DNA of 64,000 nucleotides from Candidatus Omnitrophota bacterium. GTDB taxonomy: Bacteria > Omnitrophota > Gorgyraeia > 2-01-FULL-45-10. The stretch spans positions 5,723-69,722 of the forward strand of contig JBAZNZ010000006.1 in assembly GCA_041648975.1 (NCBI GenBank), read 5' to 3'. Below, piece by piece: positions 287-11,875 of this stretch (its first letter is position 1; each line of letters opens with the position of its first letter). A program made the position numbers and the translations under genes. The notes beneath the pieces were generated by a model, which had not been told where the DNA came from, ran no database searches, and was given only the letters and a program-made list of their open reading frames with translations.

Positions 287-341
287 TATCGATATAGAGA
301 TCGGCAGGTTTCGTCTCGCCTTCAGCGTCAGGACATACGTT

Positions 342-1133
342 ATGGGGATCCTGAACGTAACTCCCGATTCCTTTTCCGACGGAGGAAAGTTCTTCGACAA
401 GGATAAGGCCGTGAAGCATGCCATGGATATGGCGCGCGAAGGAGCGGACATTATAGACGTCGGAGGGGAGTCTGCAAGGCCCGGCTCAACCGAGATCAGC
501 GTTGAAGAAGAGCTCGATCGCGTCATGCCGGTCGTGGAGGCCATGGCAGGGAAAGCGGGCGTCCCTGTGTCGATAGATACACGAAAAGGGAAAGTGGCTG
601 AGGCCGCATTGAGGGCCGGCGCGAAAATAGTGAATGACATTTCGGGATTCAAGTATGATCCGTATCTGGCTGCCGTTACCGCGCGATATGACGCAGCTGT
701 CATATTGATGCACATGCGCGGGACGCCTCTAGATATGCAGAAGGCGCCGCGCTACAAGAATGTGATGAAAGAGGTTGCCGGGGAATTGCAGCGATCTATC
801 AAGATCGCCGTCGATGCGGGTGTGAAAAAGGAGAAGGTGATCATAGATCCCGGTATAGGTTTTTCAAAGACTGCCGAACACAATCTCGTCATCCTCAACA
901 GGCTTGATGAGATCAAGGCTCTGGGCTATCCGGTCTGCGTCGGGACTTCGAGAAAGTCATTCATAGGAAAGGTCCTGGGCATCGAGGGTACGAATAACAG
1001 GCTGGCAGGTACGCTGGCTACATGTGTAATGGCGATCATGAAGGGCGCCAATATTTTAAGGGTCCATGATGTCAGGGAGGTTGTTGCGGTAAGTCGTATG
1101 ACCGACAGCGTATTACGGGAAAGGGCCTTTTGA
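342..1133 (+). CDS. folP: dihydropteroate synthase
   Basis: Contains the DHPS signature GILNVTPDSFSDGG plus DVGGESARPG and GVPVSIDT, in the 228..1133 ORF. The ATG at 342 (MGILNVTPDSF) is the likely true start, because upstream codons overlap ftsH. Confidence 0.85.
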   Translation: MGILNVTPDSFSDGGKFFDKDKAVKHAMDMAREGADIIDVGGESARPGSTEISVEEELDRVMPVVEAMAGKAGVPVSIDTRKGKVAEAALRAGAKIVNDISGFKYDPYLAAVTARYDAAVILMHMRGTPLDMQKAPRYKNVMKEVAGELQRSIKIAVDAGVKKEKVIIDPGIGFSKTAEHNLVILNRLDEIKALGYPVCVGTSRKSFIGKVLGIEGTNNRLAGTLATCVMAIMKGANILRVHDVREVVAVSRMTDSVLRERAF

Positions 1134-1134
1134 T

Positions 1135-1923
1135 ATGTCATATATTTCGAACTGGAAGATAATCCTGGAACTGGCGCTTCTATGGTATGTGATATATATG
1201 GTACTCCTATTTGTGAAAGGCACGCGTTCGGAGCATCTCCTTAAGGGCCTCCTCATCATAGCATTGATATTCACCATTACCCAGCAACTGAAGCTGGACA
1301 CCATAAATTGGGTGCTCACAAGGCTCGTTCCGATATCTGTAATCGGGCTCGTTGTAATATTCCAGCCGGAGCTTCGTCGGGGCCTCGCGAGGCTGGGACA
1401 GCTTGGCGTCCCGCAGGAGAACGTCGAGGCGATCGACGAGATAGCGAGGGCGTCCTCGGATCTCAGCAAGAGGAAGATAGGCGCTCTTATGGTCATAGAC
1501 AGAGGGAGCGAGCTGAAAAGCTATGTCGAGAGCGGCACGCAGCTTGACAGCAAGGTCAGCGATTATCTCCTGGTTTCGATATTCACGCATCAATCGCCGC
1601 TCCATGACGGCGCTGTCATAATCCAACAGGGACGGTTGACGGCCGCGGGATGCGTATTGCCGCTGCCACAGGACGACAAGGATATCCCGCGCTCTCTCGG
1701 TATGCGGCACCGCGCGGCAGTGGGTATAAGCGAAGAGACCGACGCGCTCTGCGTAGTGGTGAGCGAAGAGACGGGTGCGATCTCGGTTGCCAGCGGAGGC
1801 AACCTGACATACGATATCGGGGAAGATAACCTATCTAAAGTGCTTAAGAGCATACTATATAAGCCGTCGGACCAGAAGACGCCGTTTTCGCATATCTGGT
1901 CCAAAAAGAGGAAGGCAACTTGA
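1135..1923 (+). CDS. cdaA: diadenylate cyclase CdaA (c-di-AMP synthase), N-terminal TM helices plus DAC domain
   Basis: Carries the DAC-domain motifs LHDGAVIIQQGRLTAAGCVLPL and RHRAAVGISEETDALCVVVSEETGAISVA, with two or three N-terminal hydrophobic helices. The ATG follows 1 nt after the folP stop. Confidence 0.8.
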   Translation: MSYISNWKIILELALLWYVIYMVLLFVKGTRSEHLLKGLLIIALIFTITQQLKLDTINWVLTRLVPISVIGLVVIFQPELRRGLARLGQLGVPQENVEAIDEIARASSDLSKRKIGALMVIDRGSELKSYVESGTQLDSKVSDYLLVSIFTHQSPLHDGAVIIQQGRLTAAGCVLPLPQDDKDIPRSLGMRHRAAVGISEETDALCVVVSEETGAISVASGGNLTYDIGEDNLSKVLKSILYKPSDQKTPFSHIWSKKRKAT

Positions 1924-2369
1924 GGATCCCGGAGTTCATTAAAAGTTTTTTTACTAAAAATATAGGACTTAAGGTAACGGCGTTGCTGCTGACATTGGTC
2001 CTATGGTTCTACGTCGTCGGAGAGCTTAATAAGGGCAGCGAGGAAGAGAAGCATTTCCTGAATAAGATACTTCCGTCGGGAGACGTTGCGGCTAAACAGC
2101 TTTCCATACAACCAGTATTCATAGGCAAGCCTCGGCCCGGTTATGCGATAGACATATCGTCAGTGATGGTCGAGCCTGATTACTGTATCGTCATAGGGAC
2201 AAAGGAACTGCTGGGCAAGATACGGGTAGCGTACACTATGCCGATAGACATTGCCGGCGCATCCAGGTCGCTGATCCGGCCCGTGGCGCTTAGCCCGATC
2301 GCGCCCGGTGTTTATATGGAAGAGACGTTCGTGCAGGTCACTGTGCCGATCGAAAAGATCAGGCAATAG
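1920..2369 (+). CDS. CdaR/YbbR-like CdaA regulator (short form)
   Basis: TTG start overlaps the cdaA stop (TTGA). Has an N-terminal TM helix and a YbbR-like beta-rich domain. It sits in the position cdaR usually occupies. Confidence 0.45.
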   Translation: MRIPEFIKSFFTKNIGLKVTALLLTLVLWFYVVGELNKGSEEEKHFLNKILPSGDVAAKQLSIQPVFIGKPRPGYAIDISSVMVEPDYCIVIGTKELLGKIRVAYTMPIDIAGASRSLIRPVALSPIAPGVYMEETFVQVTVPIEKIRQ

Positions 2370-2377
2370 GATCATTT

Positions 2378-3091
2378 ATGGTTAAACTCGGCGTCAATAT
2401 AGACCACGTTGCCACTTTGAGAGAGGCGAGAAAGACCTATATGCCGGATCCGGTAGAAGCGGCCCGGATATGCTTAAAAGCAGGCTGCGATTCGATTGTA
2501 TGCCATTTGCGGGAAGACAGAAGGCATATAAAGGATGCGGATGTGTTGCGGCTGAGAAAGATCCGGGGCATGAGGCTTAATCTCGAGATGTCGGCGGTGA
2601 AAGATATAGTAGATTTCGCGTGTAAGGTGAAGCCTGACCAGGCTACGCTTGTGCCTGAGCGAAGACAGGAGGTCACGACCGAAGGCGGCCTTGATGTAAA
2701 AAAGAATTATAATAAAATAAAATCTGTCGTATCGAGGCTGAAGCGTGCCGGCATTGAGGTCAGCCTATTCATCAATCCGTCGAAACAACAGGTGGATGCG
2801 TCGGCTGATTCCGGCGCTGCGATCATAGAGTTCCATACGGGCGAATATGCCAACGCCGCTTCGAAAGCGGCACGAAGGCGCCAACTAGGTATCCTGAAAG
2901 ATGAAACCGCATACGCTTTGTCGAAGGGTCTCGAAGTTAATGCCGGACATGGATTGAATTACGATAATACGGCTGATGTCGCGGCGATCAAAGGCATGAA
3001 TGAATTGAATATCGGCCACTCTATTATTTGCAGGGCCGTCTTTGTAGGGATGGAAAGGGCGGTCGAAGAGATGCTGGAGATTATAAGATGA
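2378..3091 (+). CDS. pdxJ: pyridoxine 5'-phosphate synthase
   Basis: N-terminus MVKLGVNIDHVATLREAR is canonical PdxJ; also EFHTG and GHGLNY. 237 aa. Confidence 0.85.
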   Translation: MVKLGVNIDHVATLREARKTYMPDPVEAARICLKAGCDSIVCHLREDRRHIKDADVLRLRKIRGMRLNLEMSAVKDIVDFACKVKPDQATLVPERRQEVTTEGGLDVKKNYNKIKSVVSRLKRAGIEVSLFINPSKQQVDASADSGAAIIEFHTGEYANAASKAARRRQLGILKDETAYALSKGLEVNAGHGLNYDNTADVAAIKGMNELNIGHSIICRAVFVGMERAVEEMLEIIR

Positions 3092-3471
3092 TATTCGGCG
3101 CCGGTGTCGACATAGTCGAGGTATTCAGGATGAGAGACGCTATAAATAAGTGGGAGCACAGCTTCCTGTCGAAGATATTTACCGAGAAAGAGATCGGTTA
3201 CTCGATATCACGGAGGTTCTCTTACCAGCACTTTGCCGCCAGGTTCGCGGCAAAAGAGGCGGTTATCAAGGCGTTCGGCGAGCCCCGCAAATTTCCCATC
3301 AAATGGACGGACGTCGAGGTATTGAACGATAAAGAGGGTAAGCCCATGATAGAATTCCGCGGCGACGCGCTTAAGCTGAAAAAGAGGAAGAAGATCGACC
3401 GGATAATCGTCAGCATGTCCCATTCCAAGAATTACGCGATAGCGAACGTTATATTGATGAAGAAAGGTTAG
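3088..3471 (+). CDS. acpS: holo-[acyl-carrier-protein] synthase
   Basis: MIFGAGVDIVEV...FAARFAAKEAVIKAFG. The start overlaps the pdxJ stop (ATGA). pdxJ-acpS linkage is conserved. Confidence 0.8.
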   Translation: MIFGAGVDIVEVFRMRDAINKWEHSFLSKIFTEKEIGYSISRRFSYQHFAARFAAKEAVIKAFGEPRKFPIKWTDVEVLNDKEGKPMIEFRGDALKLKKRKKIDRIIVSMSHSKNYAIANVILMKKG

Positions 3472-3473
3472 CG

Positions 3474-4337
3474 ATGCAGCAGATAAAAGACGCGCTGACG
3501 AAGTTCCCTAAAAGGGCGACGGATGCGCATAAGGGTGACTTCGGCCACGTCCTTGTCATGGCGGGATCGTGCGGATATACCGGTGCTGCGTATCTCGCGA
3601 GCCAGGCCTCAGCGCTTTCGGGCAGCGGACTCGTGACCCTTGCGATAGCGAAAAGCCTGTACGGTGTGCTAGCGTCAAAATTGACGGAGGTAATGGTCCG
3701 TCCGTTCATCGAGACTAAAGACGGTTCCCTAAGTCTCCTGGCCGAAAAAGACCTTGTCGGCTTTGCGCATAAATGTAATTCTATCGCGATCGGCCCTGGA
3801 CTGTCGCAGAATAAGGAGACGCAGCGGCTTGTAAGGAATCTACTGGAAAAACTCGACAAGCCGGTTGTACTTGACGCGGACGGTATTAACGCATTTGTAG
3901 GATGCCTGGATGCCCTGAAAAATTCGAAGCGACCGCTTGTAATGACACCTCATCCGGGAGAGTTGGCGAGGCTGATAGGGAAAGAGGCGGAAGAGATTCA
4001 GAAGGATAGAAAAAATATTGCTTTAAGCTTTGCTAATGAGTATAATACGGTCTTAGTTTTAAAGGGGCACAACACTGTCATTGCAGAACCGGGCGGCGAA
4101 TATTATGTGAATGAGACCGGCAACGTTGGGATGGCTTCCGGCGGCACAGGCGATGTGTTGACAGGAATAATAGCTAGCTTCATAGGACAGGGGCTAGATC
4201 CTTTTACAGCCGCTGTGTTGGGCGTATATTTTCACGGCCTGGCCGGCGATGAGGCGGCTAAAGAGAAGGGCCAACTCAGCCTGCTCGCTACGGATATATT
4301 AAATAAGTTGCCGGAAGTTTTGACGGTGCTGGGGTAG
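3474..4337 (+). CDS. nnrD: ADP-dependent NAD(P)H-hydrate dehydratase (YjeF C-terminal domain, carbohydrate-kinase fold)
   Basis: HKGDFGHVLVMAGSCGYTGAAYLAS, TPHPGELARL and GGTGDVLTGIIAS are YjeF_C motifs. The TAG stop overlaps the downstream tRNA. Confidence 0.75.
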   Translation: MQQIKDALTKFPKRATDAHKGDFGHVLVMAGSCGYTGAAYLASQASALSGSGLVTLAIAKSLYGVLASKLTEVMVRPFIETKDGSLSLLAEKDLVGFAHKCNSIAIGPGLSQNKETQRLVRNLLEKLDKPVVLDADGINAFVGCLDALKNSKRPLVMTPHPGELARLIGKEAEEIQKDRKNIALSFANEYNTVLVLKGHNTVIAEPGGEYYVNETGNVGMASGGTGDVLTGIIASFIGQGLDPFTAAVLGVYFHGLAGDEAAKEKGQLSLLATDILNKLPEVLTVLG

Positions 4338-4403
4338 CTCAATTGGCAGAGCACCGCATTTGTAATGCGGACGTTGAAGGTTCAATTCCTTTCCCCAGCT
4401 CCA
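4328..4403 (+). tRNA. tRNA-Thr (anticodon TGT)
   Basis: 76-nt cloverleaf. Acceptor gctgggg/ccccagc, D arm gctc-aattggca-gagc, anticodon stem ccgca/tgcgg with loop tttgtaa (anticodon TGT, A37), T arm gaagg-ttcaatt-ccttt, encoded CCA. Confidence 0.8.
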
Positions 4404-4653
4404 AGTTATTTAAGTCGAAATAGTACAGATAGGAATTGAAGCGAATACAATAAATATTTATATAAATGCGAAAATTAAATAAATATAAAATCAAATCATT
4501 GTATTGGAATAAGGATTATACAGCTATACGCATTCACGCGTTAATCTAAAGAAGGCAAGAATATACTGGCATAAAATAACAGGAGTGCCGCTTGCTCAAT
4601 TTACTAAGCCATATGTACGAAAAGGAAATCCGAATCTAAGCAATAGAAAATTG

Positions 4654-4682
4654 CTTTACGGGCTTGTCCATATTCGCTATAA
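4654..4682 (+). promoter_or_regulatory. putative sigma70-type promoter for tRNA-Tyr (TTTACG-17-TATAAT)
   Basis: A perfect -10 TATAAT at 4677-4682, with a weak -35 TTTACG 17 nt upstream, lies about 60 nt before the tRNA-Tyr 5' end. Confidence 0.3.
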
Positions 4683-4743
4683 TGACAAAAAGCTGTTGGA
4701 AACGATACATAATTGGATTGATATATATGTAGATCAGTTTAGT

Positions 4744-5039
4744 GGTGAGGTACCATAGCGGCCAAATGGACCAGACTGTGGTGAACGCAGCGTCATGAAG
4801 AAATTCATGATGGAAAAGCGGGTGAATTCAGGGGAGCCCTTAATAGCGAAACATTAAGGGGAATCCTGAGCCAAGCCTAGAACCGTAATGGTTCTTTGAA
4901 GGTGCAGAGACTAAGCGCCCGCCGCCTAAAGTTCGCAAGAACCAAGGTGATGAGATAGTCCAAGCCTCGAGGTAACTTGAGGGCCCTTGAAATCTGGCGG
5001 CGCAAGCCTTCGATGGTTCGAATCCATCCCTCACCACCA
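4744..5039 (+). tRNA. tRNA-Tyr (anticodon GTA), type II, interrupted by a 210-nt group I intron in the anticodon loop (exons 4744..4779 and 4990..5039)
   Basis: Exon 1 is ggtgagg-ta-ccat-AGCGGCCAAA-tgg-a-ccaga-ctgt. The D loop AGCGGCCAAA matches E. coli tRNA-Tyr. Exon 2 is aaa-tctgg-cggcgcaagccttc (long variable arm, GGC/GCC stem)-gatgg-ttcgaat-ccatc-cctcacc-a-cca. The spliced anticodon loop CUGUAAA is the tRNA-Tyr loop, and the acceptor stem is perfectly paired. Confidence 0.8.
4780..4989 (+). ncRNA. group I self-splicing intron (IC3-like, ORF-less) inside tRNA-Tyr
   Basis: Core elements are recognisable. P-like GAATTCAGGGGAGCC, Q-like GGAATCCTGAGCCAAGCC, R-like GGTGCAGAGACTAAG, S-like GATGAGATAGTCCAAG. 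These match the cyanobacterial/plastid tRNA-Leu(UAA) intron core. The 5' splice site follows U, the intron ends in G, and there is no internal ORF. Confidence 0.7.
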
Positions 5040-5184
5040 ACTTAACAGATTTATTGCATAAGTTCTATAGTGTCAGTGAGTTATGCGACCTGGAGATTTT
5101 AGACTTTAACAAAAAGCCATTAAAATTGGTTCCGGTAAAAATATTTTCTGTCTAATATGGAAAGAGGTCTACAACGAATTAACT

Positions 5185-5264
5185 CTTGAAAATTATAGAT
5201 TCAGAAAAAGGATCTGTATGTAAATGAGACAAAGCGCTGGCTGGTATGGCCAGCGCTTTTAATT
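5185..5264 (+). repeat. about 80-nt intergenic module, copy 1 (roughly 75% identical to 6070..6147), ending in a terminator-like hairpin
   Basis: CTTGAAAATTATAGATTCAGAAAAAGGATCTGTATGTAAATGAGACAAAGCGCTGGCTGGTATGGCCAGCGCTTTT aligns with the second copy. Confidence 0.5.
5233..5264 (+). terminator. rho-independent terminator-like hairpin (AGCGCTGGC-TGGTAT-GCCAGCGCT followed by TTTTAATTT)
   Basis: Perfect 9-bp GC-rich stem followed by a T-rich tract. Lies downstream of tRNA-Tyr. Confidence 0.4.
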
Positions 5265-5279
5265 TGGGGGTAATGAGGT

Positions 5280-5528
5280 ATGAATGCTGACGATTATATA
5301 GGGAAAGGCTCGGAACATATAGCAAAGGCTATTGCAGGGGTTGCGAAAGAGCCTCCGTCATGGCAACAATTATTACTTCAGGAGTATTTGAAGGTGGAAT
5401 TAAACAGAGAACTAATAGAGAGCCAAAGGAAGCATCAGGACGATTCAATTAAGCAGATGAAGCACCTTGTTTATGCAACGTGGGGATTAGTCGTGGCAAC
5501 GTTGTTATTGGTGCTAATAAAGCATTAA
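5280..5528 (+). CDS. hypothetical small protein with C-terminal TM anchor (82 aa)
   Basis: ORF with C-terminal hydrophobic helix WGLVVATLLLVLI. No recognisable motif. Confidence 0.35.
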   Translation: MNADDYIGKGSEHIAKAIAGVAKEPPSWQQLLLQEYLKVELNRELIESQRKHQDDSIKQMKHLVYATWGLVVATLLLVLIKH

Positions 5529-5539
5529 AAGGAGAGGCT

Positions 5540-5932
5540 ATGGGATATTTGATAGGTTTTTATCATAACGCGTGGGGATTGGTTCCATTTGCTTTAGTGG
5601 CATCTTTAGTGTTGTTTTTATTCAGAAGGTGTGGCTTCATCAAATATTTCTCTGTTTTATGGTTGGTTCTAATTGGATACGAATATTCACAAGTCTATGG
5701 TGGGAATGTCTATGGAGCTATGATACAGAGTGGAATGGCAAGGACTTATTCTAAAGTGGTGGGTTATCTTGTGGGGTATCTGTATTTTTCTATCGTTGCT
5801 TCTGTTCCATTTATTTTTATGGATGTAATAAAGAGTAAACTAGCTAAAAAACTATATCTTTTGATGTTCGTTATATTTATGTGGGTAACGCCATTTATAT
5901 GTGAATTTATCGGAGATATTGCGAAAAGATAA
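5540..5932 (+). CDS. hypothetical integral membrane protein (about 4 TM, 130 aa)
   Basis: ATG at 5540 is preceded by AAGGAGAGG. Four hydrophobic segments. The longer 5480 start overlaps the previous ORF. Confidence 0.45.
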   Translation: MGYLIGFYHNAWGLVPFALVASLVLFLFRRCGFIKYFSVLWLVLIGYEYSQVYGGNVYGAMIQSGMARTYSKVVGYLVGYLYFSIVASVPFIFMDVIKSKLAKKLYLLMFVIFMWVTPFICEFIGDIAKR

Positions 5933-6069
5933 GTAGGTAGTAGAGAATGAGGAATTATGGGACGCGTCAAAAAAGGACACGCAGTTTGAGTGGAATGCCC
6001 CCAAAGTGACACGTCCCTAATAGCTGCCTTTGCTGCGCAATGCAGAAAGAGGTGTGAAACGAACAAAAA

Positions 6070-6147
6070 CTTGAAGATTTTAGATATAGAAAACGGATCC
6101 GTGTAAATTGGGAGAAGCGCTGGCTATTGTATAGTCTGCGCTTTTTT
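6070..6147 (+). repeat. about 80-nt intergenic module, copy 2 (paralogue of 5185..5264), ending in a terminator-like hairpin
   Basis: CTTGAAGATTTTAGATATAGAAAACGGATCCGTGTAAATTGGGAGAAGCGCTGGCTATTGTATAGTCTGCGCTTTTTT. Confidence 0.5.
6116..6147 (+). terminator. rho-independent terminator (AGCGC...GCGCT followed by TTTTTT) after the 5540..5932 gene
   Basis: Stem agcgc/gcgct with an internal loop, followed by six T. Confidence 0.45.
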
Positions 6148-6182
6148 GCTTGAACGCGTATTTTGTGAGTCATGGCAAGGAG

Positions 6183-6611
6183 ATGGTAATTATGATGAAA
6201 ATTTTAGCGTATATATTCTTCGCATATCTTTACATATCAGTTGGCGTATTTATTTACTTCTTGATTCGTGATAAACGAGGGAAAGTGCCTTATAATCCTA
6301 ATAACCTAAATGGCTTGTCAGCGATTTTTTCGCTTGGAACACTTATTATGCTTTGGTTAATTTTAAGCATAGGCATAGAAAAGTTTTTACTTGCACCCAT
6401 ACCTTATTCTTGGGGGTGGCACGAAGGAGAAGGAGTTAAGAATTCATTAAGATTCAATTTAGCTTGGATGATTGCTCTTGCAATATCAGTTTATATATTT
6501 TGGATTATAGGAGAGCTTCAAAGGAAAGAAAAGGTTATAAAAGAGTTGCAAGCTCGGTATCAAAAATTAAAGGGGACAGATAAAGGGGAGTGCAAAAATG
6601 GGCATGGCTAA
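6183..6611 (+). CDS. hypothetical membrane protein (3 TM, C-terminal coiled-coil/K-rich tail)
   Basis: ATG at 6183 follows AAGGAG. Hydrophobic helices ILAYIFFAYLYISVGVFIYFLI, LSAIFSLGTLIMLWLILSIGI and LAWMIALAISVYIFWIIG. Overlaps the next gene. Confidence 0.45.
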   Translation: MVIMMKILAYIFFAYLYISVGVFIYFLIRDKRGKVPYNPNNLNGLSAIFSLGTLIMLWLILSIGIEKFLLAPIPYSWGWHEGEGVKNSLRFNLAWMIALAISVYIFWIIGELQRKEKVIKELQARYQKLKGTDKGECKNGHG

Positions 6612-7143
6612 TCTTTCAGACATAAAATCAGAGCCGATTCTTCTCAAAGATAAGGAGTGGAGCTTGATTGATGGCGAGCTTTGTCTTGTAACGGAATTTT
6701 TCCCAATGATGGGGAGTAGCGTTAAGGATGGGGTTGTAATATCGCCCAGCACCTCCGCCCCTTACGCAAAAATTACTATTAGATGTAAAAAAATACCCAC
6801 TGAAATAACCGCCTTTATAACACATTCCATTGACTTTGCTAACCTTTGGGATGCCTTTAGGTATAGAGAAACACATAATAAGACCGATGAGATACTTATT
6901 TATTGGTCAACGAAGCATTATAATAGTGTCATTGCAAAGATAATATCCTCGGTTATGCTAACTATCCTCGGTGGCACGTCTCTGCCGAAAATCCTTATTA
7001 TGCTTCGTCCTAACGGTGCTTATGAAAAAAGCGGGAGTGATTCAAGATTGCCCCACGATATAAATGCAAATGTTTTTATATATGGCTCATTACCTATTAA
7101 GTGTTGGATACCTGATATTATGAATGAGGCAGTTAAACATTAA
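6598..7143 (+). CDS. hypothetical soluble protein (181 aa)
   Basis: The start overlaps the upstream gene end, suggesting translational coupling. No known motif recognised. Confidence 0.45.
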   Translation: MGMANLSDIKSEPILLKDKEWSLIDGELCLVTEFFPMMGSSVKDGVVISPSTSAPYAKITIRCKKIPTEITAFITHSIDFANLWDAFRYRETHNKTDEILIYWSTKHYNSVIAKIISSVMLTILGGTSLPKILIMLRPNGAYEKSGSDSRLPHDINANVFIYGSLPIKCWIPDIMNEAVKH

Positions 7144-7166
7144 AAGCTAAATAGAGAGGTGCGAAA

Positions 7167-7532
7167 ATGTCAGAGCAAAATCCTGCAACAATAATAAAAA
7201 ACGCAGTAGAAGACCTTGCGGGGAAAATAATATTTTTATCAGGCGAAGTAGCAACTTTTAAGCAAGCTCTGTGCGACCTCGTAATCAAGGCGAATGATTC
7301 GAGCAATAAAATGCTTAAGGCTTCAAAGATGTATTTTGCAGGAAGTATTATTCTGTCAGCAGTTATAGCCTTTAGTGCGTTAGTTCCTAAGTGGGGTTTT
7401 GTATCCACTCAAGGCGGTTATACATTAAAGTATAATCAGGTTACAGGGAAAGCTGTTGTGTATAAATGTAATTATTCAACCGAAGGGAAGTATGTATACC
7501 AAGAATTCCCTGTCGAAAAATATAAGCCTTAA
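7167..7532 (+). CDS. hypothetical protein with one central TM helix (121 aa)
   Basis: Follows the previous ORF after 23 nt. Central helix is AGSIILSAVIAFSALV. Third gene of an apparent operon. Confidence 0.4.
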   Translation: MSEQNPATIIKNAVEDLAGKIIFLSGEVATFKQALCDLVIKANDSSNKMLKASKMYFAGSIILSAVIAFSALVPKWGFVSTQGGYTLKYNQVTGKAVVYKCNYSTEGKYVYQEFPVEKYKP

Positions 7533-7640
7533 GATTTCGTTGTTAAAGAAATAAATGAACAATCAAGCCATAGCATATTGCGGATGCTTTACCGATATGC
7601 AGGAAATGTTGATTCTTGACAGCATACCTTTTTAGGTGTC

Positions 7641-7681
7641 TTGACACTACAGGTGTAATATGCTACACTTATCGGTGTAAT
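7641..7681 (+). promoter_or_regulatory. sigma70 promoter (TTGACA-17-TACACT) with flanking GGTGTAAT direct repeats (putative operator)
   Basis: Consensus -35 TTGACA at 7641-7646 and -10 TACACT at 7664-7669. GGTGTAAT occurs at 7652-7659 and again at 7674-7681, straddling the -10 element. The site lies just upstream of the wHTH-nucleotidyltransferase gene. Confidence 0.45.
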
Positions 7682-7694
7682 GTGAGGAACGCAT

Positions 7695-8240
7695 ATGATC
7701 CCGCTTAAATCGACAATAACTAAAAAGATACTAAATTACTTTTTTGTCAATCCACAAGAAAGCTTATATGTAAATGAGCTGTCCCGGAAGCTATTTCTGG
7801 ATAAAAGGAACCTGGTAAAAAAGATCAAGGAGCTAGAGGCTGAAGGGATATTGGTTCATGAGACGAGAGGCAACCTTAAGTTATATGCTATAAATGCTAG
7901 CTATCCTTTATATAAAGAATTTCGTAAAATTATCATGACAACGGTAGGAGTCGAGGAACAACTGAGGCATCTTTTAAAAGGAGTTACTGGAGTTAAAGAA
8001 GCGTATATTTATGGCTCATATGCGAAAAATGCTATGGATACTCATAGCGATATCGACGTTCTTATTGTAGGTAGTGTAGGTGTTGTAACCGTACAAAAGC
8101 ACATAAGCAAGCTACAGAGAGAAATAGATAGGGAGATAAGCGTTACTGTTATGACCAAAAAGGACTTTACCCGGCGCGTAAAGGCAAAAGATCCCTTTAT
8201 TAGTGGTGTGCTCAAACAAAAGCACATAAAGATAATATGA
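7695..8240 (+). CDS. winged-HTH DNA-binding domain fused to a minimal nucleotidyltransferase (MNT/Pol-beta fold), MntA/AbiEii-like
   Basis: The N-terminus (ILNYFFVNPQESLYVNELSRKLFLDKRNLVKKIKELEAEGIL) looks like an ArsR/MarR-type wHTH. The C-terminus carries the NTase motif GSYAKNAMDTHSDIDVLIVG. Confidence 0.65.
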   Translation: MIPLKSTITKKILNYFFVNPQESLYVNELSRKLFLDKRNLVKKIKELEAEGILVHETRGNLKLYAINASYPLYKEFRKIIMTTVGVEEQLRHLLKGVTGVKEAYIYGSYAKNAMDTHSDIDVLIVGSVGVVTVQKHISKLQREIDREISVTVMTKKDFTRRVKAKDPFISGVLKQKHIKII

Positions 8241-8644
8241 TGAAATTCGAAGATAAATATTTCAAAGATTTTGTATTTACAAAGGATCAGGTCAAAAAGA
8301 ATTTCGATAATGCCTTAAAAGATATTAAGATTGCGCGTCAAGATGCCATCCCGGATGTCAAATTCACATACTCTTATGATGCACTTATTAAAGGTGGTAT
8401 TGCTTTGATAAGCAGCTACAACAAAAAAGTCAAAAGTGCGCCAGGGCATCATGTGAAGATTATAGAGATGGTTGCGAAAATATTAAATGACGACACAATT
8501 GAAGCTGTGGGCGGCGCTATGCGCTCAAAGCGCAATGTGGATTTCTACGATGGCGGGGTGGAGGTTACCGAAAAAGAGGCGTGCGAATATTTGGGTTTCG
8601 TAGACAGTATTTTGAAAAAAATTGAAAAAGCCTTAAATATCTGA
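8237..8644 (+). CDS. hypothetical protein, putative partner of the upstream nucleotidyltransferase (possible toxin or antitoxin)
   Basis: ATGA overlap with the NTase gene suggests a coupled two-gene module. No canonical HEPN Rx4-6H motif was seen, so its family is undetermined. Confidence 0.4.
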   Translation: MMKFEDKYFKDFVFTKDQVKKNFDNALKDIKIARQDAIPDVKFTYSYDALIKGGIALISSYNKKVKSAPGHHVKIIEMVAKILNDDTIEAVGGAMRSKRNVDFYDGGVEVTEKEACEYLGFVDSILKKIEKALNI

Positions 8645-8657
8645 TAATATGCTTGCG

Positions 8658-8705
8658 GGTGAGGAAGTTTCTATATGTTAAGTTCGAGGCGAACCCTCAC
8701 CACCA
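8658..8705 (+). repeat. tRNA-Tyr-derived acceptor/T-arm-like fragment (GGTGAGG...GTTCGAGGCGAACCCTCACCACCA), putative att remnant
   Basis: Its 5' GGTGAGG and 3' CCCTCACC-ACCA reproduce the tRNA-Tyr acceptor stem, and it ends in a T-arm-like CGAAC. It is homologous to 11459..11503. Confidence 0.5.
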
Positions 8706-8884
8706 GTAATATCTACTCAGTTCGACTGAGTATTATAATACCCGCGTTGAAGATGGATTCGCAAAAAGGGTTTTTAAGGGAAAAAAGAATTTTTTCCCTT
8801 ATCGGCGCACGAGAACATCTATGCGGAAGAAAGGATAACATTAAAAGGAAAACATCAGGTTTTCCTTTTAAGGAGCCCATAGCC

Positions 8885-8916
8885 TAAGTTCAGGGCGACG
8901 AATCCGTCCCTCACAA
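8885..8916 (+). repeat. degenerate copy of the tRNA-Tyr 3' end (CGAATCCGTCCCTCAC against tRNA CGAATCCATCCCTCAC)
   Basis: One mismatch over 16 nt to the tRNA-Tyr T-arm/acceptor region. The upstream CCCATAGCC resembles the tRNA-Tyr D-arm CCATAGCGG. Confidence 0.4.
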
Positions 8917-9015
8917 TAGTTAAATGAGTGTGCTATGTGATAATTTTAGACCTAATAATACCCGTAAATTAGCATCCGCAGTTGTGGGGTGCTAATTTTA
9001 TTTTAAGGGGGTAAT

Positions 9016-9609
9016 GTGGAAGAAAAAAATCTAAACGAGACAATTAAAGAAGCGGTTACTGCAGAAAGCCGTAAAGACAGTTGGTTAGAAACGCTTGGCA
9101 TATCATGGGAAGATGTTATTAAGGCACTTGAACAATCGGAGAAAGATGAGAAATATTTAACGGAATTAGCTAAAAAAACAGCATCTAATAAATCGAGACA
9201 CTTTATAGTTGTGCGCAGTATAGTATTAGACATTCATTTGCTTTTGGATTATACCGTAAGCTCTGTCATTGGGTTTATGCTTGTCTTTCGGGGTGGACAT
9301 CATGGAAAGGAATATAATGGGCAAGAGGTTCAGGAAATTATAGATTTTATACATGACAAGGTTGACTATGCAAAGAGGGTGCATATCATAGAGAGGCTGA
9401 AGATATTTAGCAAAGACGCTATCAAAATATTATATGCAGTTAATAATCTTCGAGTTGCTTTTGCTCACGGTAAAAAGAACGTAGAGTACAATTACTTCAA
9501 TAAATCGGTATTTGATAAGAATACTATTGATAGACTACAGGCAGATAAAAACAAGGTATTGGGAGAATACTCGGAGTTTCTGAAGAATAGCACAGATAAG
9601 AAAACATAA
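9016..9609 (+). CDS. hypothetical protein with C-terminal Rx4H motif (possible HEPN/Abi-like)
   Basis: GTG start follows AGGGGG by 6 nt. The C-terminal LRVAFAHG matches the HEPN catalytic Rx4-6H pattern. Confidence 0.4.
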   Translation: MEEKNLNETIKEAVTAESRKDSWLETLGISWEDVIKALEQSEKDEKYLTELAKKTASNKSRHFIVVRSIVLDIHLLLDYTVSSVIGFMLVFRGGHHGKEYNGQEVQEIIDFIHDKVDYAKRVHIIERLKIFSKDAIKILYAVNNLRVAFAHGKKNVEYNYFNKSVFDKNTIDRLQADKNKVLGEYSEFLKNSTDKKT

Positions 9610-9618
9610 GGAGAAGTA

Positions 9619-9646
9619 AGTAGCTGACGTTTAAACGTCAACTACT
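9619..9646. repeat. near-perfect 28-nt palindrome centred on GTTTAAAC
   Basis: AGTAGCTGACGTTTAAACGTCAACTACT has one mismatch. It lies just after the 9016..9609 stop codon. It may be a terminator (no T-tract) or a protein-binding site. Confidence 0.3.
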
Positions 9647-9688
9647 TTGTGGGTAACTAGAGTATTGGGATGAATTAAGAATAAAATA

Positions 9689-10228
9689 ATGAAAATTAAG
9701 ATTAGTAAAATTCAAGCCGCAGAAGCGCAGCTAAATGAAGCTATCTTTTTATTTTTTGATGAGGCTAATCCTGTAGTTATTGAAACATTGATAGGGGCTG
9801 TTATAGGTATATTGCGACCTATAGGTAAAAAATATGGCATTCAAGCCCCTTCCCATGATTCGGATAAAATAAAGCCAGAATATAAGAAGCTATGGATAGA
9901 CACTCTTCATAAAGCTCAGAATTTTTTTAAACACGCTGATAATGATTCAGATGATATTTTATCTTACGAAAATGATATATTGCCTTTTTGCATTGTTGAA
10001 GCATGTCATTTGTTCAGATATGTCGCATCCGATAAATGCTTGAAATATCGACAGTCTCAGCCTGCCCTACTGTTTGAAATATGGTTTTGGCTGAAATATC
10101 CCCATTTATTAAAAGACTTAGCTGAGACTGAGAAATTCTTGCAGGCTGTAGGTATGCCAAAAAGTTTTAGTGTTGATGATTTCGAAGTGCTGAAAATGTT
10201 GGCAGATAAGTATCGGATAAAATTATAG
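9689..10228 (+). CDS. hypothetical protein (179 aa)
   Basis: ORF with its ATG following GGGATGAATTAAGAATAAAATA. No recognised motif. Confidence 0.4.
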   Translation: MKIKISKIQAAEAQLNEAIFLFFDEANPVVIETLIGAVIGILRPIGKKYGIQAPSHDSDKIKPEYKKLWIDTLHKAQNFFKHADNDSDDILSYENDILPFCIVEACHLFRYVASDKCLKYRQSQPALLFEIWFWLKYPHLLKDLAETEKFLQAVGMPKSFSVDDFEVLKMLADKYRIKL

Positions 10229-10238
10229 TTTTCTATAA

Positions 10239-10847
10239 GTGGGGGGCATGATGGATACGATATTTTTTATTTCTATAGGTGTGGTTGGCATCATTAGTGT
10301 GCTCGTAGGATTTTTGCCGCAAGAAAAATTAAGCAGGCATCTTAAAATATTATTTCTTGTAATCACGGCAGCGTGTCTTATGTTTCAAGGGTTTTACGGG
10401 TTAAAAGAGAAGAGATCCTCGGATTATAAAAAATACAGAGATGACTTGTACCAAAACGATATGCTAACGGGGCAAAGTGAGATTTCGGATGGTATGAAGG
10501 AACTGAAAGAAAAAAGTAAAAAAGGTGTTTTAACAGAGGCCGAATATGGACTGTATATTTCCAATTATTTAGAAAGCATAGATCTTAGCTTAAAGCGCTT
10601 GGGTTGGAAACATAATAGAGAGCGGATCATTGATTATTATGAAGAAATTGCTAAGATTCCAGATTATTTTACTTTTCAAGAATGGAGTGCTGCCGAGGCA
10701 TTTATATATAACTCGATGATGGATGAGATCAACAATAATTTCAGTGCTAGAAATATGTACGATAGTAGCGCAAGAACAAAAGTGCTGGAGAGTTTTGAGC
10801 GCGAACGCGGAAGGCTAATTACAGCAAAAGAAAGAGAGTTTAGTTAA
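10239..10847 (+). CDS. hypothetical membrane protein with SHOCT-like motif
   Basis: Two N-terminal TM helices. KELKEKSKKGVLTEAEYGLYISNYL resembles the SHOCT oligomerisation motif (G-[LIV]-[LI]-T-x-E-E-Y). Confidence 0.4.
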   Translation: MGGMMDTIFFISIGVVGIISVLVGFLPQEKLSRHLKILFLVITAACLMFQGFYGLKEKRSSDYKKYRDDLYQNDMLTGQSEISDGMKELKEKSKKGVLTEAEYGLYISNYLESIDLSLKRLGWKHNRERIIDYYEEIAKIPDYFTFQEWSAAEAFIYNSMMDEINNNFSARNMYDSSARTKVLESFERERGRLITAKEREFS

Positions 10848-10921
10848 AACAAGGGAATGAGAAGGGTGGCTCTATTAAATGTTAGATATGTTTGTTCCCG
10901 TAAAATATATTTACAATTATA

Positions 10922-10950
10922 TTGACAAAAATATGTATATCGAGTATACT
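10922..10950 (+). promoter_or_regulatory. sigma70 promoter (TTGACA-17-TATACT) for brnT-brnA, overlapping palindrome GTATATCGAGTATAC
   Basis: Consensus -35 with a near-consensus -10 ending 5 nt before the ATG, implying a leaderless or short-leader mRNA. The palindrome over the -10 is consistent with an autorepressor operator. Confidence 0.4.
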
Positions 10951-10955
10951 TAATT

Positions 10956-11237
10956 ATGCTCGAAGAACATAACAGTTTTGTGTGGGATCCGAGGAAAGAA
11001 AGAATAAATGTAATAAAGCACCGGATCGATTTTACTACGGCAGCCTATGCATTCGACGATCCTAAAAGAAAGATATTTGCCGACCTTTGGCATAGTGAGC
11101 ACGAACAAAGATATTTTTGTATAGGAAGGATAAATAATAAGATAGTAACCGTGCGCTTTACTCGTAGGGGTAACAAGATTAGGATAATTGGCGCGGGTTA
11201 CTGGAGAAAGGGGAGAAAATACTATGAAAAAGCATAA
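10956..11237 (+). CDS. brnT: BrnT-like type II toxin (DUF497 ribonuclease)
   Basis: FVWDPRKERINVIKHRIDFTTAAYAFDDP...IIGAGYWR matches the BrnT/DUF497 signature (F-x-WD-x-x-K-x-x-x-N-x-x-KHG-[IV]-x-F). Confidence 0.7.
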   Translation: MLEEHNSFVWDPRKERINVIKHRIDFTTAAYAFDDPKRKIFADLWHSEHEQRYFCIGRINNKIVTVRFTRRGNKIRIIGAGYWRKGRKYYEKA

Positions 11238-11454: not shown

Positions 11455-11458
11455 AAAG

Positions 11459-11860: not shown

Positions 11861-11875
11861 TGCGAGGGCTAAAAA

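Follow-up and report, generated by a model that had tools for sequence, protein, structure and literature searches.

A tRNA-Tyr(GUA) gene of Omnitrophota, very probably split between anticodon nucleotides 35 and 36 by a splicing IC3-like group I intron and lying beside a decayed endonuclease-like gene

The stretch of Candidatus Omnitrophota DNA analysed here (the window, 64,000 nucleotides) contains, at positions 4744-5039 of the forward strand, a type II tRNA-Tyr(GUA) gene. Its nucleotides 35 and 36 are separated by a group I intron of 210 nt that has no open reading frame (ORF). Our comparisons make it highly probable that this is the housekeeping tRNA-Tyr(GUA) gene, split at U35/A36 by an IC3-like intron that splices, and that it sits beside a decayed gene of endonuclease-like character. 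Judged from its sequence, the intron is almost certainly functional, and a new member of the already catalogued Tyr 35/36 type. The split gene and its ORF-less intron had been proposed in the first-pass annotation of this DNA, and both were confirmed: the Rfam group I model RF00028 (Intron_gpI) matches positions 4768-4982 (+) over its full length (model positions 1-253) with 86.4 bits (E = 1.2e-20), compared with a gathering score of 50, and ARAGORN recognizes the spliced sequence as a tRNA-Tyr.

The split gene, its junction and its genomic slot

Exon 1 (4744-4779, +; GGTGAGGTACCATAGCGGCCAAATGGACCAGACTGT) supplies the 5' strand of the acceptor stem, the D arm and the 5' strand of the anticodon stem, and ends with the anticodon-loop nucleotides C32 U33 G34 U35; its D-loop presumably agrees with that of E. 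coli tRNA-Tyr. The intron (4780-4989, +) starts after U4779, and its last nucleotide, G4989, is the omega G. Exon 2 (4990-5039, +; AAATCTGG...CCTCACC-A-CCA) resumes with A36 A37 A38 and contains the 3' strand of the anticodon stem, a long variable arm, the T arm, the 3' strand of the acceptor stem and A73, with the CCA end encoded at 5037-5039. The acceptor stem pairs as GGTGAGG/CCTCACC and is followed by A5036 and CCA. When the exons were spliced in silico, ARAGORN called a tRNA-Tyr(gta) with a cloverleaf, GUA in a 7-nt loop, a long variable arm, G1-C72 and A73. In default mode the same program missed the split gene in the window sequence, and it found no second tRNA-Tyr gene within the 64-kb window. 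A contig from an independent metagenome assembly (ENA ERZ27247363, locus L001) is 100% identical to the window across 4300-5131, and the split gene is therefore not an assembly artefact. Downstream of the gene, a terminator-like hairpin with a T run at 5231-5267 (+) is predicted from a consensus match alone.

The junction at 4779|4990, between anticodon nucleotides 35 and 36, had also been proposed in the first pass, and our comparison of junctions led to the same position. Of the junctions compared, all with a U or C in position -1 and the same 3' site, G4989|A4990, this one alone combines a 7-nt loop, CUGUAAA, having U33 and A37, with a -1 U and an omega G. The ligated exons are predicted to read GACUGU|AAAUCUGG. 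A different junction would produce another type II tRNA, for example one with a Leu(UAA)- or Ser-like anticodon if the exon ended after U33 or U34. ARAGORN does accept several artificial junctions, such as a 'tRNA-Leu taa' with an exon ending at U4777, and the Rfam alignment sets P1 two nucleotides upstream, at U4777-G4787. We nevertheless regard another junction as extremely unlikely, because the anticodon loops would then have 5 or 6 nt, because intron nucleotide 1 co-varies with the base 5' of the guide in the P1 register U4779-G4787, and because, going by established tRNA identity elements, a long variable arm together with G1-C72 and A73 fits a bacterial tRNA-Tyr. The Rfam register of P1 was ruled out by loop length together with the co-varying extension pair, and U4779-G4787 was kept.

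The gene for tRNA-Thr(UGU) at 4328-4403 (+; ARAGORN; Rfam tRNA, 69.8 bits) is the first of a Thr(UGU)-Tyr-Gly(UCC) cluster, and the split tRNA-Tyr lies between tRNA-Thr(UGU) and tRNA-Gly(UCC) in nearly all of 55 related loci. By gene order, then, the split gene fills the housekeeping Thr-Tyr-Gly tRNA slot. The nearest intron, with 87% identity, belongs to a locus (L017) of an Omnitrophota metagenome-assembled genome (MAG), and positions 329-4404 of the window are collinear with that locus. Intron-less tRNA-Tyr genes, a possibility raised for related genomes in the first pass, do exist: nearly identical tRNA-Tyr alleles without the intron were found in close relatives (L139, L097 and L155), indicating that the intron is dispensable. 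In the 11-kb insertion downstream, no integrase was found. Because default tRNA finders miss the split gene, Omnitrophota genomes and MAGs will seem to lack a tRNA-Tyr; its 5' exon ends up inside a predicted protein gene.

Structure and covariation of the intron

A search with a 22-base gapped pattern across 596 Gb yielded 55 homologous split tRNA-Tyr genes, 43 of them labelled Omnitrophota, and the covariation set consisted of 56 distinct sequences. At species level, 54 or more genomes carry this intron lineage, the majority of them Omnitrophota. In the P1-P9 structure 94.2% of cells are paired, compared to 33-46% when the partners are slid by 1-3 columns, and compensatory changes on both sides were seen in 43 of 66 pairs, with P3, P4, P5, P6, P6a, P8 and P9 all varying compensatorily. 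The covariation score is 0.378, as opposed to at most 0.089 in the slid controls, and the observed values were reached by none of 500 shuffles; these shuffle statistics overstate independence because the 56 sequences are related, a weakness of which the slid-partner control is free. The structure of the intron is under selection, and it has the conserved group I core, made up of the P4-P6 stack and a P3-P7-P8 domain with its P3/P7 pseudoknot. Folded alone, the intron has a minimum free energy (MFE) of -75.6 kcal/mol (z = -4.59; 0 of 200 shuffles were equally good), and the MFE fold contains P2, P3, P4, P5, P6a, P8 and P9. The three group I core motifs noticed in the first pass are all present, with GGAATCCTGAGCCAAGCC at 4860-4877, GGTGCAGAGACTA at 4901-4913 and GAGATAGTCCAAG at 4952-4964.

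All helices lie on the forward strand. P1 (4776-4790) joins the exon sequence CUGU (4776-4779) to the internal guide GCAG (4787-4790), with a wobble at the 5' splice site formed by U4779-G4787; guide pairing had been expected for the whole of GACUGU, and it is the CUGU portion that pairs. The four core pairs of P1 are identical in all 56 sequences. The extension pair G4780-C4786, within the intron, co-varies (GC 25, AU 13, GU 3, CG 2, UA 1, UG 1), and this covariation anchors the U35-G wobble in the register U4779-G4787. U occupies position -1 in 56 of 56 homologues, and the omega position (4989) is G in 56 of 56, with AAATC always next. P2 (4793-4810) is a 7-bp hairpin capped by a GAAA tetraloop, L2 (4800-4803), with 97% of cells paired and compensatory changes in 7 of 7 pairs. 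P3 (4818-4824 with 4916-4922) is paired in 98.7% of cells, and three of its pairs have changes on both sides (e.g., UA 38 / CG 14 and AU 30 / GC 23). The region 4828-4869 contains P4 (4828-4832 with 4865-4869) around P5 (4837-4844 with 4853-4860); pairing in P4 reaches 99%, the two divergent Patescibacteria sequences carrying CG-to-GC and AU-to-CG swaps, and P5 has compensatory changes in 7 of 8 pairs. Within 4870-4903, P6 (4870-4872 with 4901-4903) is 99% paired and leads to the P6a hairpin (4876-4898; apical loop GUAAU, 4885-4889), which varies in length and has compensatory changes in 7 of 7 pairs.

P7 was assigned by sequence complementarity, with its 5' strand at 4907-4913, including the bulged A4908, and its 3' strand at 4956-4961. 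Guanosine would be expected to bind at the pair G4909-C4960, which adjoins that bulge. P7 is invariant in the set, an invariance imposed by the homologue search pattern, and so this helix is without covariation support. Between P7 and the 3' strand of P3 (4916-4922, placed by covariation and sequence) there are 2 nt alone, so P7.1 and P7.2 are absent. P9.0 (A4962 A4963 with U4987 U4988) surrounds the P9 hairpin (4965-4982, GUAA loop) within 4962-4988; P9 is 99% paired with compensatory changes in 6 of 7 pairs, and P9.0 shifts from AA/UU to AC/GU in the two divergent sequences. P8 (4923-4949), a helix supported by covariation, has a GCAA loop and a CCUAAAG...CAAGG motif that resembles the 11-nt GAAA-tetraloop receptor. 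This receptor-like motif occurs in 40 of the 43 sequences in which L2 is GAAA, and is replaced by a plain P8 helix in 11 of the 13 sequences with another L2. The L2 tetraloop thus co-varies with its P8 receptor, a tertiary co-variation. A GAAA loop L2 facing a receptor-like motif in P8 is the arrangement of the L2-P8 contact in the Azoarcus intron.

An antisense ORF at 4840-5040, dismissed as an artefact in the first pass, is also best read as spurious in light of our results: it lies wholly inside a structured RNA with compensatory helices, and the stop-free length on this strand ranges from 33 to 100 codons among the homologues (at least 60 codons in 37 of 56).

Alternatively, the split gene might be dead, a relic whose intron no longer splices, with an intact tRNA-Tyr elsewhere supplying the cell. 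The 64 kb of genome in view leave room for such a gene, and the adjoining endonuclease-like gene has already decayed in the window. We consider a relic very unlikely, since the elements of the catalytic core are all intact, with the U-G wobble at the 5' splice site and the omega G; the helices have been kept by compensatory changes over 56 sequences; the exons make a perfect tRNA-Tyr; and the canonical Thr-Tyr-Gly slot is occupied in nearly all related loci. We therefore prefer the reading in which the intron still splices. On that reading, it would have to do so for the cell to make tRNA-Tyr.

The probable steps of splicing are those established for group I introns in general. The exon end CUGU of the precursor would pair with the guide GCAG to form P1, placing U35 in the U-G wobble, and the P3-P9 and P4-P6 domains would fold around P1. 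The fold would be braced by the contact of L2 (GAAA) with the P8 receptor, and probably also by a contact of L9 (GUAA) with P5. A free guanosine bound in P7 would attack the 5' splice site after U4779, and omega-G4989 would then take its place in the binding site. Attack of the 3'-OH of exon 1 after G4989 would release an 86-nt type II tRNA-Tyr with the loop CUGUAAA. Pairing of the anticodon stem, instead of a P10 helix, probably holds both exons together.

The pattern search also returned candidates that we rejected. Matches in archaeal MAGs (L005 and L007), in Prochlorococcus and elsewhere were without an RF00028 match and were treated as chance, not as group I introns of archaea. In Desulfobulbales loci, an apparent tRNA-Sec(UCA) interrupted by a group I intron proved to be an artefact of a forced 3' splice site, and the exons, read by eye, are those of a tRNA-Arg(UCU) split at 34/35. 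Another locus called tRNA-SeC in the same ARAGORN pass (L036) reads by eye as a tRNA-Leu(UAA), probably split at 33/34.

Relationship to catalogued tRNA introns

The novelty that the first-pass annotation had implied for a tRNA-Tyr host did not stand. A Tyr intron after the fourth anticodon-loop nucleotide is represented by the seed Mba143.Tyr.4Ug (Williams 2020, bioRxiv 10.1101/2020.01.27.920355, gpI.sto), and a Tyr(GUA) 35/36 intron is listed for the Patescibacteria genome GCA_016699995.1 (Nakagawa et al. 2026, PMC13011429). The catalogued Tyr 35/36 introns share with the window intron the host tRNA, the site CUGU|AAA, U at -1, the omega G and the GCAG guide. Mba143.Tyr.4Ug differs in its core, which has P4 ACGGUG, GUAGAGACUA and AAGAUAUAGUCC, and it has 135 of 214 positions in common with the window intron, fewer than the Leu and Lys seeds have. 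In the accessible portions of the complete-genome survey, none of the 35/36 cases is from Omnitrophota (Nakagawa, PMC13011429), and the same portions of that paper and of Williams 2020 (10.1101/2020.01.27.920355) make no mention of an Omnitrophota lineage, its abundance or its neighbour gene. What is new here, on the basis of sequence comparison, is an intron lineage widespread in Omnitrophota and unlike the catalogued Tyr seed.

The order of elements, P1-P2-P3-P4-P5-P6/6a-P7-P8-P9.0-P9, is that of the cyanobacterial and plastid tRNA-Leu(UAA) introns and of the Azoarcus tRNA-Ile intron (IC3). As in IC3, the window intron has no P7.1/P7.2, no P2.1 and no P5abc, and has a single P2 and a P9.0 plus P9 hairpin. 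The motifs AAUCCUGAGCCAAG and GGUGCAGAGACUA are common to the window intron and the IC3 introns of tRNA-Leu and Azoarcus. The cyanobacterial tRNA-Leu-type core recognized in the first pass is upheld by these absences and by the Synechococcus-type seed Sel1.Leu.3Ug (Williams 2020), which has 152 of 214 positions in common with the window intron; Dba165.Lys.2Ug, which carries a P7.1-like insertion, matches at 156 of 214. Differences from the IC3 introns begin with the insertion site: Leu introns lie at 34/35 and those of Ile2 and Arg at 36/37, the present one at 35/36. Compared to the cyanobacterial introns, the window intron has an extended P3 (GCGGGUG with CGCCCGC), a J8/7 of the kind found in Patescibacteria-type seeds (AUGAGAUAGUCC), and a simple P9 hairpin that lacks their P9a/b extension; its P3 and J8/7 are nearer to Patescibacteria-type seeds (Dba165.Lys, Pam37.Asn) than to the classical cyanobacterial ones. 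By architecture and seed similarity the window intron resembles IC3 and is a candidate member of it, IA being the alternative subgroup.

The tRNA-Asn and tRNA-Asp 35/36 introns of Patescibacteria, reported as IA introns that self-splice in vitro (PMC13011429), have the same insertion position as the window intron but another host tRNA and another host phylum. Pam37.Asn.4Ug has a similar P3, J3/4 and J8/7 (GGGUGAAUUCA, AGCGCCC and AUGAGAUAGUCC), but carries an extra P7.1/7.2-like hairpin between P7 and P3', where the window intron has 2 nt; Wba81.Asp.4Ug is like the window intron in having no extra hairpin at this place. The Omnitrophota introns represent an abundant and well-supported 35/36 tRNA intron lineage outside Patescibacteria. 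Their secondary and tertiary structure covaries cleanly, and they provide many natural variants of a minimal ribozyme of ~200 nt.

The upstream gene family and a tentative homing model

A conserved gene of ~200 amino acids fills the Thr-Tyr spacer and is intact in 23 of 56 loci. Remnants of it were found in four of the 56 intron-bearing loci (the window, L031, L053 and L017). About half of the intron-bearing loci are without the gene, indicating that it is not needed for splicing. In the window, a truncated remnant of about the last 65 codons was identified at 4549-4758 (+) by alignment to the C-terminus of the family and by DNA homology; it has no start codon and has lost the LAGLIDADG-like motif. 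DNA-level homology to intact upstream genes begins at 4549-4564, so that about 4549-4743 holds the remnant. The stop-free frame 4513-4743 translates to ...YWHKITGVPLAQFTKPYVRKGNPNLSNRKLLYGLVHIRYNDKKLLETIHNWIDIYVDQFS, which aligns with the C-terminal end of the family proteins, being 64% identical to that of L008, and the open frame of the remnant continues into tRNA-Tyr exon 1 to a TAG at 4756-4758. A program-made ORF list gives this remnant as 4585-4758, a short ORF on which the first-pass annotation had not remarked. Since the upstream gene is dead in the window, the intron would no longer be mobile here and would be passed on vertically as a passenger.

More than 5,640 metagenomic homologues of the upstream protein were found at E <= 1e-3, and the named ones are all Omnitrophota. 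The AF2 model (pLDDT 82) suggests an N-terminal helix-turn-helix (HTH) followed by a LAGLIDADG-like domain, the first helix of which is closed by a nearly invariant IAG..LYWAEG segment. In LKIAGIMLYWAEG, E and G are invariant in a 50-sequence set and nearly invariant in alignment A3, which contains two truncated copies; both residues close helix 74-90 of the model at its C-terminal end. hhalign sets the segment on LYVAEGD of I-DmoI, a weak match (P = 0.013), and Foldseek against the PDB was ambiguous, with OmpA/YfiB-like matches (E ~2e-3) ahead of intein endonucleases (E ~0.07). In Pfam, the upstream protein drew weak HTH models only, and neither the LAGLIDADG models nor any others matched its C-terminal domain; an NCBIfam search returned nothing, and PHROGs and PDB hmmsearch matched the HTH but not the C-terminal domain.

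The upstream gene was present in the Thr-Tyr spacer of none of 120 intron-less tRNA-Tyr loci, including four near-identical alleles, and the read-through peptide of an intron-less gene was found in none of 120 homologue tails while that of an intron-bearing gene was found in at least 83; phylogenetic confounding may underlie this gene-intron association, both in the 120 loci and in the 120 tails. A diverged homologue lies directly upstream of an intron-less tRNA-Trp (L154). Ten of ten viral homologues are scattered inside tRNA arrays, most with a tRNA gene within 75 nt of the ORF, and Rfam found no group I intron in these arrays. A strict reading, in which the gene needs the intron, is weakened by the tRNA-Trp homologue and by the ten intron-less viral ones. 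In one genome (L044), a gene with a GIY-YIG domain is found in the same Thr-Tyr slot. Given the structural model and this genomic context, the most probable reading of the upstream family is that its members are free-standing homing endonucleases that specialise in clusters of tRNA genes.

It is conceivable, though in our view less likely, that the family is instead a DNA- or RNA-binding factor with a degenerate LAGLIDADG-like fold; a WhiA-like regulator of tRNA operons, a maturase that aids folding of the intron, or a protein with some other tRNA-related function would be examples. The sporadic presence of the gene, with truncated or deleted copies among close relatives, speaks against such a role, as do the invariant acidic residue at the catalytic D/E position of the motif, the location of all ten viral homologues in viral tRNA arrays and the GIY-YIG gene that holds the same slot in L044. 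A homing endonuclease would also have precedents. Free-standing homing endonucleases of the GIY-YIG or HNH type, such as T4 SegB and the T5 F-Tfl enzymes, occur in phage tRNA clusters. Like the viral homologues reported here, they are small endonuclease-type genes wedged between tRNA genes, but the present family has an HTH and a LAGLIDADG-like fold with no Pfam model. Phage ORF-less introns offer a second comparison, the pairs in question presumably being that of F-CphI and cyanophage psbA and that of mobE and I-TevIII in T4 nrdB. They are similar in having a separate endonuclease-like gene beside the interrupted gene (PMC3984707, 2014) and intron-less alleles without that gene; they differ in that the interrupted gene here is a bacterial tRNA gene rather than a phage protein gene, and in that the candidate enzyme here is LAGLIDADG-like, with cleavage at the intron site being putative.

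We tentatively suggest that the intron and the LAGLIDADG-like gene could form a two-part mobile unit of a cellular genome, one that homes collaboratively and has an essential tRNA gene of bacteria as its target. The endonuclease would cut an uninterrupted tRNA-Tyr in the anticodon stem-loop, whose DNA (CCAGACTGTAAATCTGG) has pseudo-palindromic symmetry about nucleotide 35, a site that would suit a homodimeric enzyme with a single motif. The intron, inserted at 35/36, would split the target and make its carrier immune, and during repair naive genomes would receive copies of the upstream gene and exon 1 jointly with the intron.

The intron might also have been kept as a regulator of tRNA-Tyr supply that responds, for example, to guanosine-nucleotide or Mg2+ levels. 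The lineage persists without the endonuclease across many Omnitrophota, and such roles have been proposed for bacterial group I introns (PMC13011429). We find this improbable, because the intron is a minimal catalytic core in which no extra ligand-binding domain is visible, and because the intron-less, near-identical tRNA-Tyr alleles (L139, L097 and L155) mark it as dispensable.

According to a recent study, tRNA introns rarely move for want of internal homing endonuclease genes (PMC13011429). If the upstream family is an endonuclease, that conclusion would need qualification, as the enzyme may sit outside the intron. A two-part unit, if real, would explain the spread of ORF-less tRNA introns and would add a new, Pfam-less endonuclease family that is also present in the tRNA arrays of large phages. 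A compact protein that combines an HTH with a single LAGLIDADG-like domain, and has a universally conserved tRNA target, could be of interest to enzyme engineers.

A tRNA-Tyr gene interrupted within its anticodon

Inspection of positions 4500-5300 bore out the first-pass annotation of a tRNA-Tyr(GUA) gene divided by a group I intron. Exon 1 (4744-4779, forward strand) comprises the acceptor strand GGTGAGG, the D arm, the anticodon-stem strand CCAGA and loop nucleotides C32, U33, G34 and U35. The intron (4780-4989, forward strand) is 210 nt long with G as its 3'-terminal nucleotide, and exon 2 (4990-5039, forward strand) supplies A36, A37 and A38, followed by UCUGG, a long variable arm, the T arm, CCUCACC, A73 and an encoded CCA. 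The full Rfam group I intron model RF00028 matched 4768-4982 with 86.4 bits (E = 1.2e-20; gathering score 50), and a second, independent assembly (ENA ERZ27247363) is identical to the window over 4300-5131. ARAGORN in default mode missed the split gene and called four other tRNAs in the window. In-silico splicing took every U and C that precedes the core as the 5' site, with the 3' site fixed at G4989|A4990. The junction that had been proposed, 4779|4990 (nucleotides 35/36), yielded a spliced sequence called by ARAGORN as tRNA-Tyr(gta), and was the only one tried that gave a 7-nt loop together with U at -1 and G at omega. Flanking tRNA-Thr(UGU) and tRNA-Gly(UCC) genes occur in nearly all related loci, with tRNA-Thr(GGU) or tRNA-Pro(GGG) next after Gly in many of them, and further along the window tRNA-Thr(GGU) at 26054 is followed by EF-Tu at 26158. 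The order Thr-Tyr-Gly-Thr-tuf is widespread in bacteria, which puts the split gene in the housekeeping tRNA-Tyr slot. In annotation, the tRNA-Tyr of such genomes seems to be "missing", and protein calls run through exon 1.

The intron alone gave a minimum free energy fold with z = -4.59 relative to shuffles, in which P2, P3, P4, P5, P6a, P8 and P9 were recovered. Helices P1-P9, including the P3/P7 pseudoknot, were drawn by hand on the window sequence and projected onto a MAFFT alignment of 56 sequences (the window intron and 55 homologous tRNA-Tyr introns). The expected fold was upheld: standard pairs filled 94.2% of cells, compared with 33-46% when the 3' partners were slid by 1-3 columns. 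Both sides had changed in 43 of the 66 pairs, the covariation score was 0.378 against at most 0.089 in the slid versions, and none of 500 shuffles reached the observed pairing or covariation values. Compensatory changes were abundant in P2, P3, P5, P6a, P8 and P9, and the two divergent Patescibacteria sequences have swapped pairs in P4 and P9.0. P7 was invariant in all 56, but it was fixed by the search pattern itself. P1 had been predicted to pair an internal guide with the exon end GACUGU. Such a guide is present (GCAG, 4787-4790), but it pairs with CUGU (4776-4779) and not with the whole hexamer, U4779-G4787 being the wobble pair. The extension pair between intron nucleotide 1 and the base 5' of the guide co-varies (GC 25, AU 13, GU 3, CG 2), which fixes the register at U4779-G4787 and corrects the Rfam alignment of P1, two nucleotides off. 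Where L2 is GAAA, P8 carries the 11-nt tetraloop-receptor-like motif CCUAAAG...(U/C)A(A/U)GG in 40 of 43 sequences; of the 13 with a different L2 (GUAA, GCAA or another loop), 11 have a plain helix as P8. This L2-P8 co-variation is a tertiary signal, of the kind that selection on a folded ribozyme would produce.

The window intron almost certainly works as a self-splicing ribozyme, on whose action the cell's tRNA-Tyr would depend. Following established group I chemistry, P1 would present U35, and exogenous guanosine in P7, at a predicted site formed by the G4909-C4960 pair adjoining bulged A4908, would cut after U4779. Omega-G4989 would subsequently take the same P7 site, and the exons would be joined. 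No convincing P10 was found in the window intron; exon-exon pairing in the anticodon stem probably stands in for it, as Zaug et al. in 1993 reportedly described for the Anabaena tRNA-Leu intron.

Relatives of the intron and previously catalogued cases

A single scan of GTDB species genomes, with a pattern of the P7 strands and 3' exon, returned 91 loci. Of these, 55 were distinct tRNA-Tyr(GUA) genes interrupted at 35/36, with introns of 181-268 nt and the labels Candidatus Omnitrophota/Omnitrophica (43), "uncultured Planctomycetia/Planctomycetales" (8) and Patescibacteria-group MAGs (4). The nearest intron (87% identity) is that of an Omnitrophota MAG, at a locus (L017) collinear with window positions 329-4404, which makes an Omnitrophota-like bacterium the most probable source of the window. 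Two contigs of one Omnitrophota MAG (JAZDFW01; L012 and L019) each hold a full cluster of tRNA-Thr, upstream gene, split tRNA-Tyr and tRNA-Gly, with differing sequences; either the genome has two copies or the bin is mixed.

The other 36 loci include nine in which tRNA-Arg(UCU) has a group I intron and one with such an intron in tRNA-Leu(UAA) (L036); L013 and L020 also hold group I introns. Eight of the ten non-Tyr loci checked with Rfam were chance pattern matches. In L023, L040, L051, L055, L060, L061, L078 and L083 the tRNA-Arg(UCU) gene is split at 34/35 by a related intron, with exon 1 ending in ACGGCCUU and exon 2 starting with CUAAGCCGU. The hosts are Desulfobulbales and Desulfovibrionaceae, among them the cultured Desulfogranum marinum DSM 2058 and Desulforhopalus sp. 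IMCC35007. The tRNA-SeC label given to these loci by ARAGORN was a mislabel of the forced splice product.

The classical bacterial tRNA hosts of group I introns are Leu, fMet, Ile2 and Arg, and the first-pass annotation had placed a tRNA-Tyr host outside the classic cases. The finding itself is real and its interpretation essentially right, but the implied novelty did not stand. The Williams survey brought the tRNA settings to 21, and its seed alignment holds Mba143.Tyr.4Ug, a tRNA-Tyr split after CUGU (bioRxiv 10.1101/2020.01.27.920355). Nakagawa et al. (2026) surveyed 4,934 complete genomes and counted 333 tRNA group I introns; 28 lie at 35/36, of which 25 are classed IA and 19 are in Patescibacteria, with none listed in Omnitrophota among those complete genomes. 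Their table places Tyr(GUA) 35/36 in one Patescibacterium, and self-splicing was demonstrated for Asn and Asp 35/36 introns (PMC13011429). Host and site were therefore already catalogued, recently, and the intron is less novel than first proposed; the additions here are an Omnitrophota lineage that is abundant and shows textbook covariation, the consequence for annotation, and the gene family beside the intron. The closest Williams seed to the window intron is Dba165.Lys.2Ug (156/214 positions), the catalogued Tyr seed being further away (135/214). The suggested cyanobacterial tRNA-Leu-type core was right as to its IC3-like architecture (2 nt alone between P7 and P3', no P2.1, no P5abc) and its agreement with the cyanobacterial-type seed Sel1.Leu.3Ug (152/214), but the P3 and J8/7 sequences resemble those of Patescibacteria-type seeds.

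A gene family upstream of the intron

The Thr-to-Tyr spacer is bimodal among relatives, at 8-54 nt or about 590-800 nt, and the long spacers are taken up by a single conserved ~200-aa ORF on the same strand as the tRNAs. The 23 intact copies have a mean column identity of 60% and many invariant residues. The window, with a spacer of 340 nt, retains a fragment alone, the last ~65 codons: DNA homology begins at 4549-4564 and the frame is open into exon 1 until TAG at 4756-4758. Further remnants occur in L031, L053 and L017, the last in a 762-nt spacer with ~100 nt of the gene's 3' end beside a MazE/PrlF-type antitoxin-like ORF. The 466-nt spacer of L044 encodes a GIY-YIG-domain ORF (PF01541, E = 4e-14). 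A promoter-like site (4655-4683; TTTACG, 17-nt spacer, TATAAT) lies within the window remnant, ~60 nt upstream of tRNA-Tyr; such sites are not more numerous in the region than chance predicts.

At E <= 1e-3, over 5,640 metagenomic sequences belong to the family. Among the best 120, all organism-named ones are hypothetical proteins of Omnitrophota whose precomputed Pfam domains are exclusively HTH, and sequence libraries recognized nothing in the protein beyond this N-terminal helix-turn-helix. An AlphaFold model (pLDDT 82.4) combines an HTH bundle with an alpha/beta domain, whose first helix ends in LYWAEG with E and G invariant. Alignment by hhalign set this motif weakly on LYVAEGD of I-DmoI (P = 0.013), and Foldseek matches to the model were ambiguous. 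The model, the invariant residues and the weak I-DmoI alignment make it likely that this uncharacterized protein is LAGLIDADG-like, probably a free-standing homing endonuclease. The anticodon stem-loop DNA, a pseudo-palindrome centred on nucleotide 35, would suit a homodimeric single-motif enzyme of this type.

In ~22 of 24 loci the gene lacks its own stop codon (e.g. L008:1727-2348, L010, L014 and L019; homologous proteins P0001-P0120). Its frame reads through tRNA-Tyr exon 1 and ends within the intron, often at the UAG of the P3 strand AAAAGUAGGUG. Members vary in their frame relative to the tRNA, and the read-through tail is therefore not conserved as a peptide. Cleavage by RNase P at the tRNA 5' end, if it occurs, would leave the upstream mRNA without a stop codon, which might brake expression.

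Because of this read-through, the C-terminal tails report the junction. Of the 120 best homologues, at least 83 have tails that enter intron sequence, with ~8 more by eye; 10 of the 120 are ambiguous, 4 of these 10 being known intron carriers, and the peptide expected from an uninterrupted tRNA was found in none of the 120. A search of metagenomes for uninterrupted tRNA-Tyr genes sharing the exon sequence found at least 120 loci, and the upstream gene was in the Thr-Tyr spacer of none of the 120 listed. Four of them (L139, L097, L155 and L137) are near-identical to spliced Omnitrophota tRNAs and thus represent intron-less alleles in close relatives, as sought from the outset, with the upstream gene absent; the three with tRNA-Thr (L139, L097, L155) have spacers of 11-55 nt. 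In about half of the loci the intron is present and the gene is not. The upstream gene thus implies the intron, and not the reverse. This asymmetry fits an endonuclease to which the intron makes its carrier immune, followed by endonuclease decay, and is also compatible with simple shared ancestry.

Against a strict link between gene and intron, a diverged homologue (L154:5683-6385, E = 1e-23) ends 8 nt upstream of an uninterrupted tRNA-Trp(CCA). All ten viral homologues (L214-L223, IMG/VR contigs of 11-498 kb) lie within tRNA arrays, most with a tRNA gene called at most 75 nt from the ORF and one among 23 tRNAs in 5 kb. They are ~230 aa long, with an HTH and a GCMLYWAEG domain and 25-37% identity, and Rfam at gathering threshold found no group I intron at these ten loci. 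It is safest to describe the family as one of endonuclease-like selfish genes associated with tRNA clusters. Collaborative homing of gene and intron, a concept described for phages (PMC3984707), is possible, though less likely than not.

The region downstream of tRNA-Tyr

The spacer between tRNA-Tyr and tRNA-Gly extends over 11.3 kb (5040-16353), compared with 1-400 nt in most relatives. It encodes a nucleotidyltransferase (7695-8240), a multi-PAS histidine kinase (11876-15538), a response regulator (15540-15908) and hypothetical genes, and no integrase was found within it. At ~5131 there is a break in the independent assembly, which represents the same organism. Partial copies of the tRNA-Tyr 3' end (compare 5016-5039) lie at 8669-8705 and 11467-11503; they share a 37-nt repeat, and both end with the exact 12-mer CCCTCACCACCA. 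They resemble the att-site remnants that two tandem elements formerly integrated in tRNA-Tyr would leave. A 17-nt partial copy of the tRNA-Gly(UCC) 5' end (16099-16115, compare 16349-16365) lies 250 nt upstream of that gene.

The window holds two EF-Tu genes with 100% identical 398-aa products, one after tRNA-Thr(GGU) (26158-27354) and the other among large ORFs further downstream (41715-42911), as expected of tufB and tufA homogenized by gene conversion.
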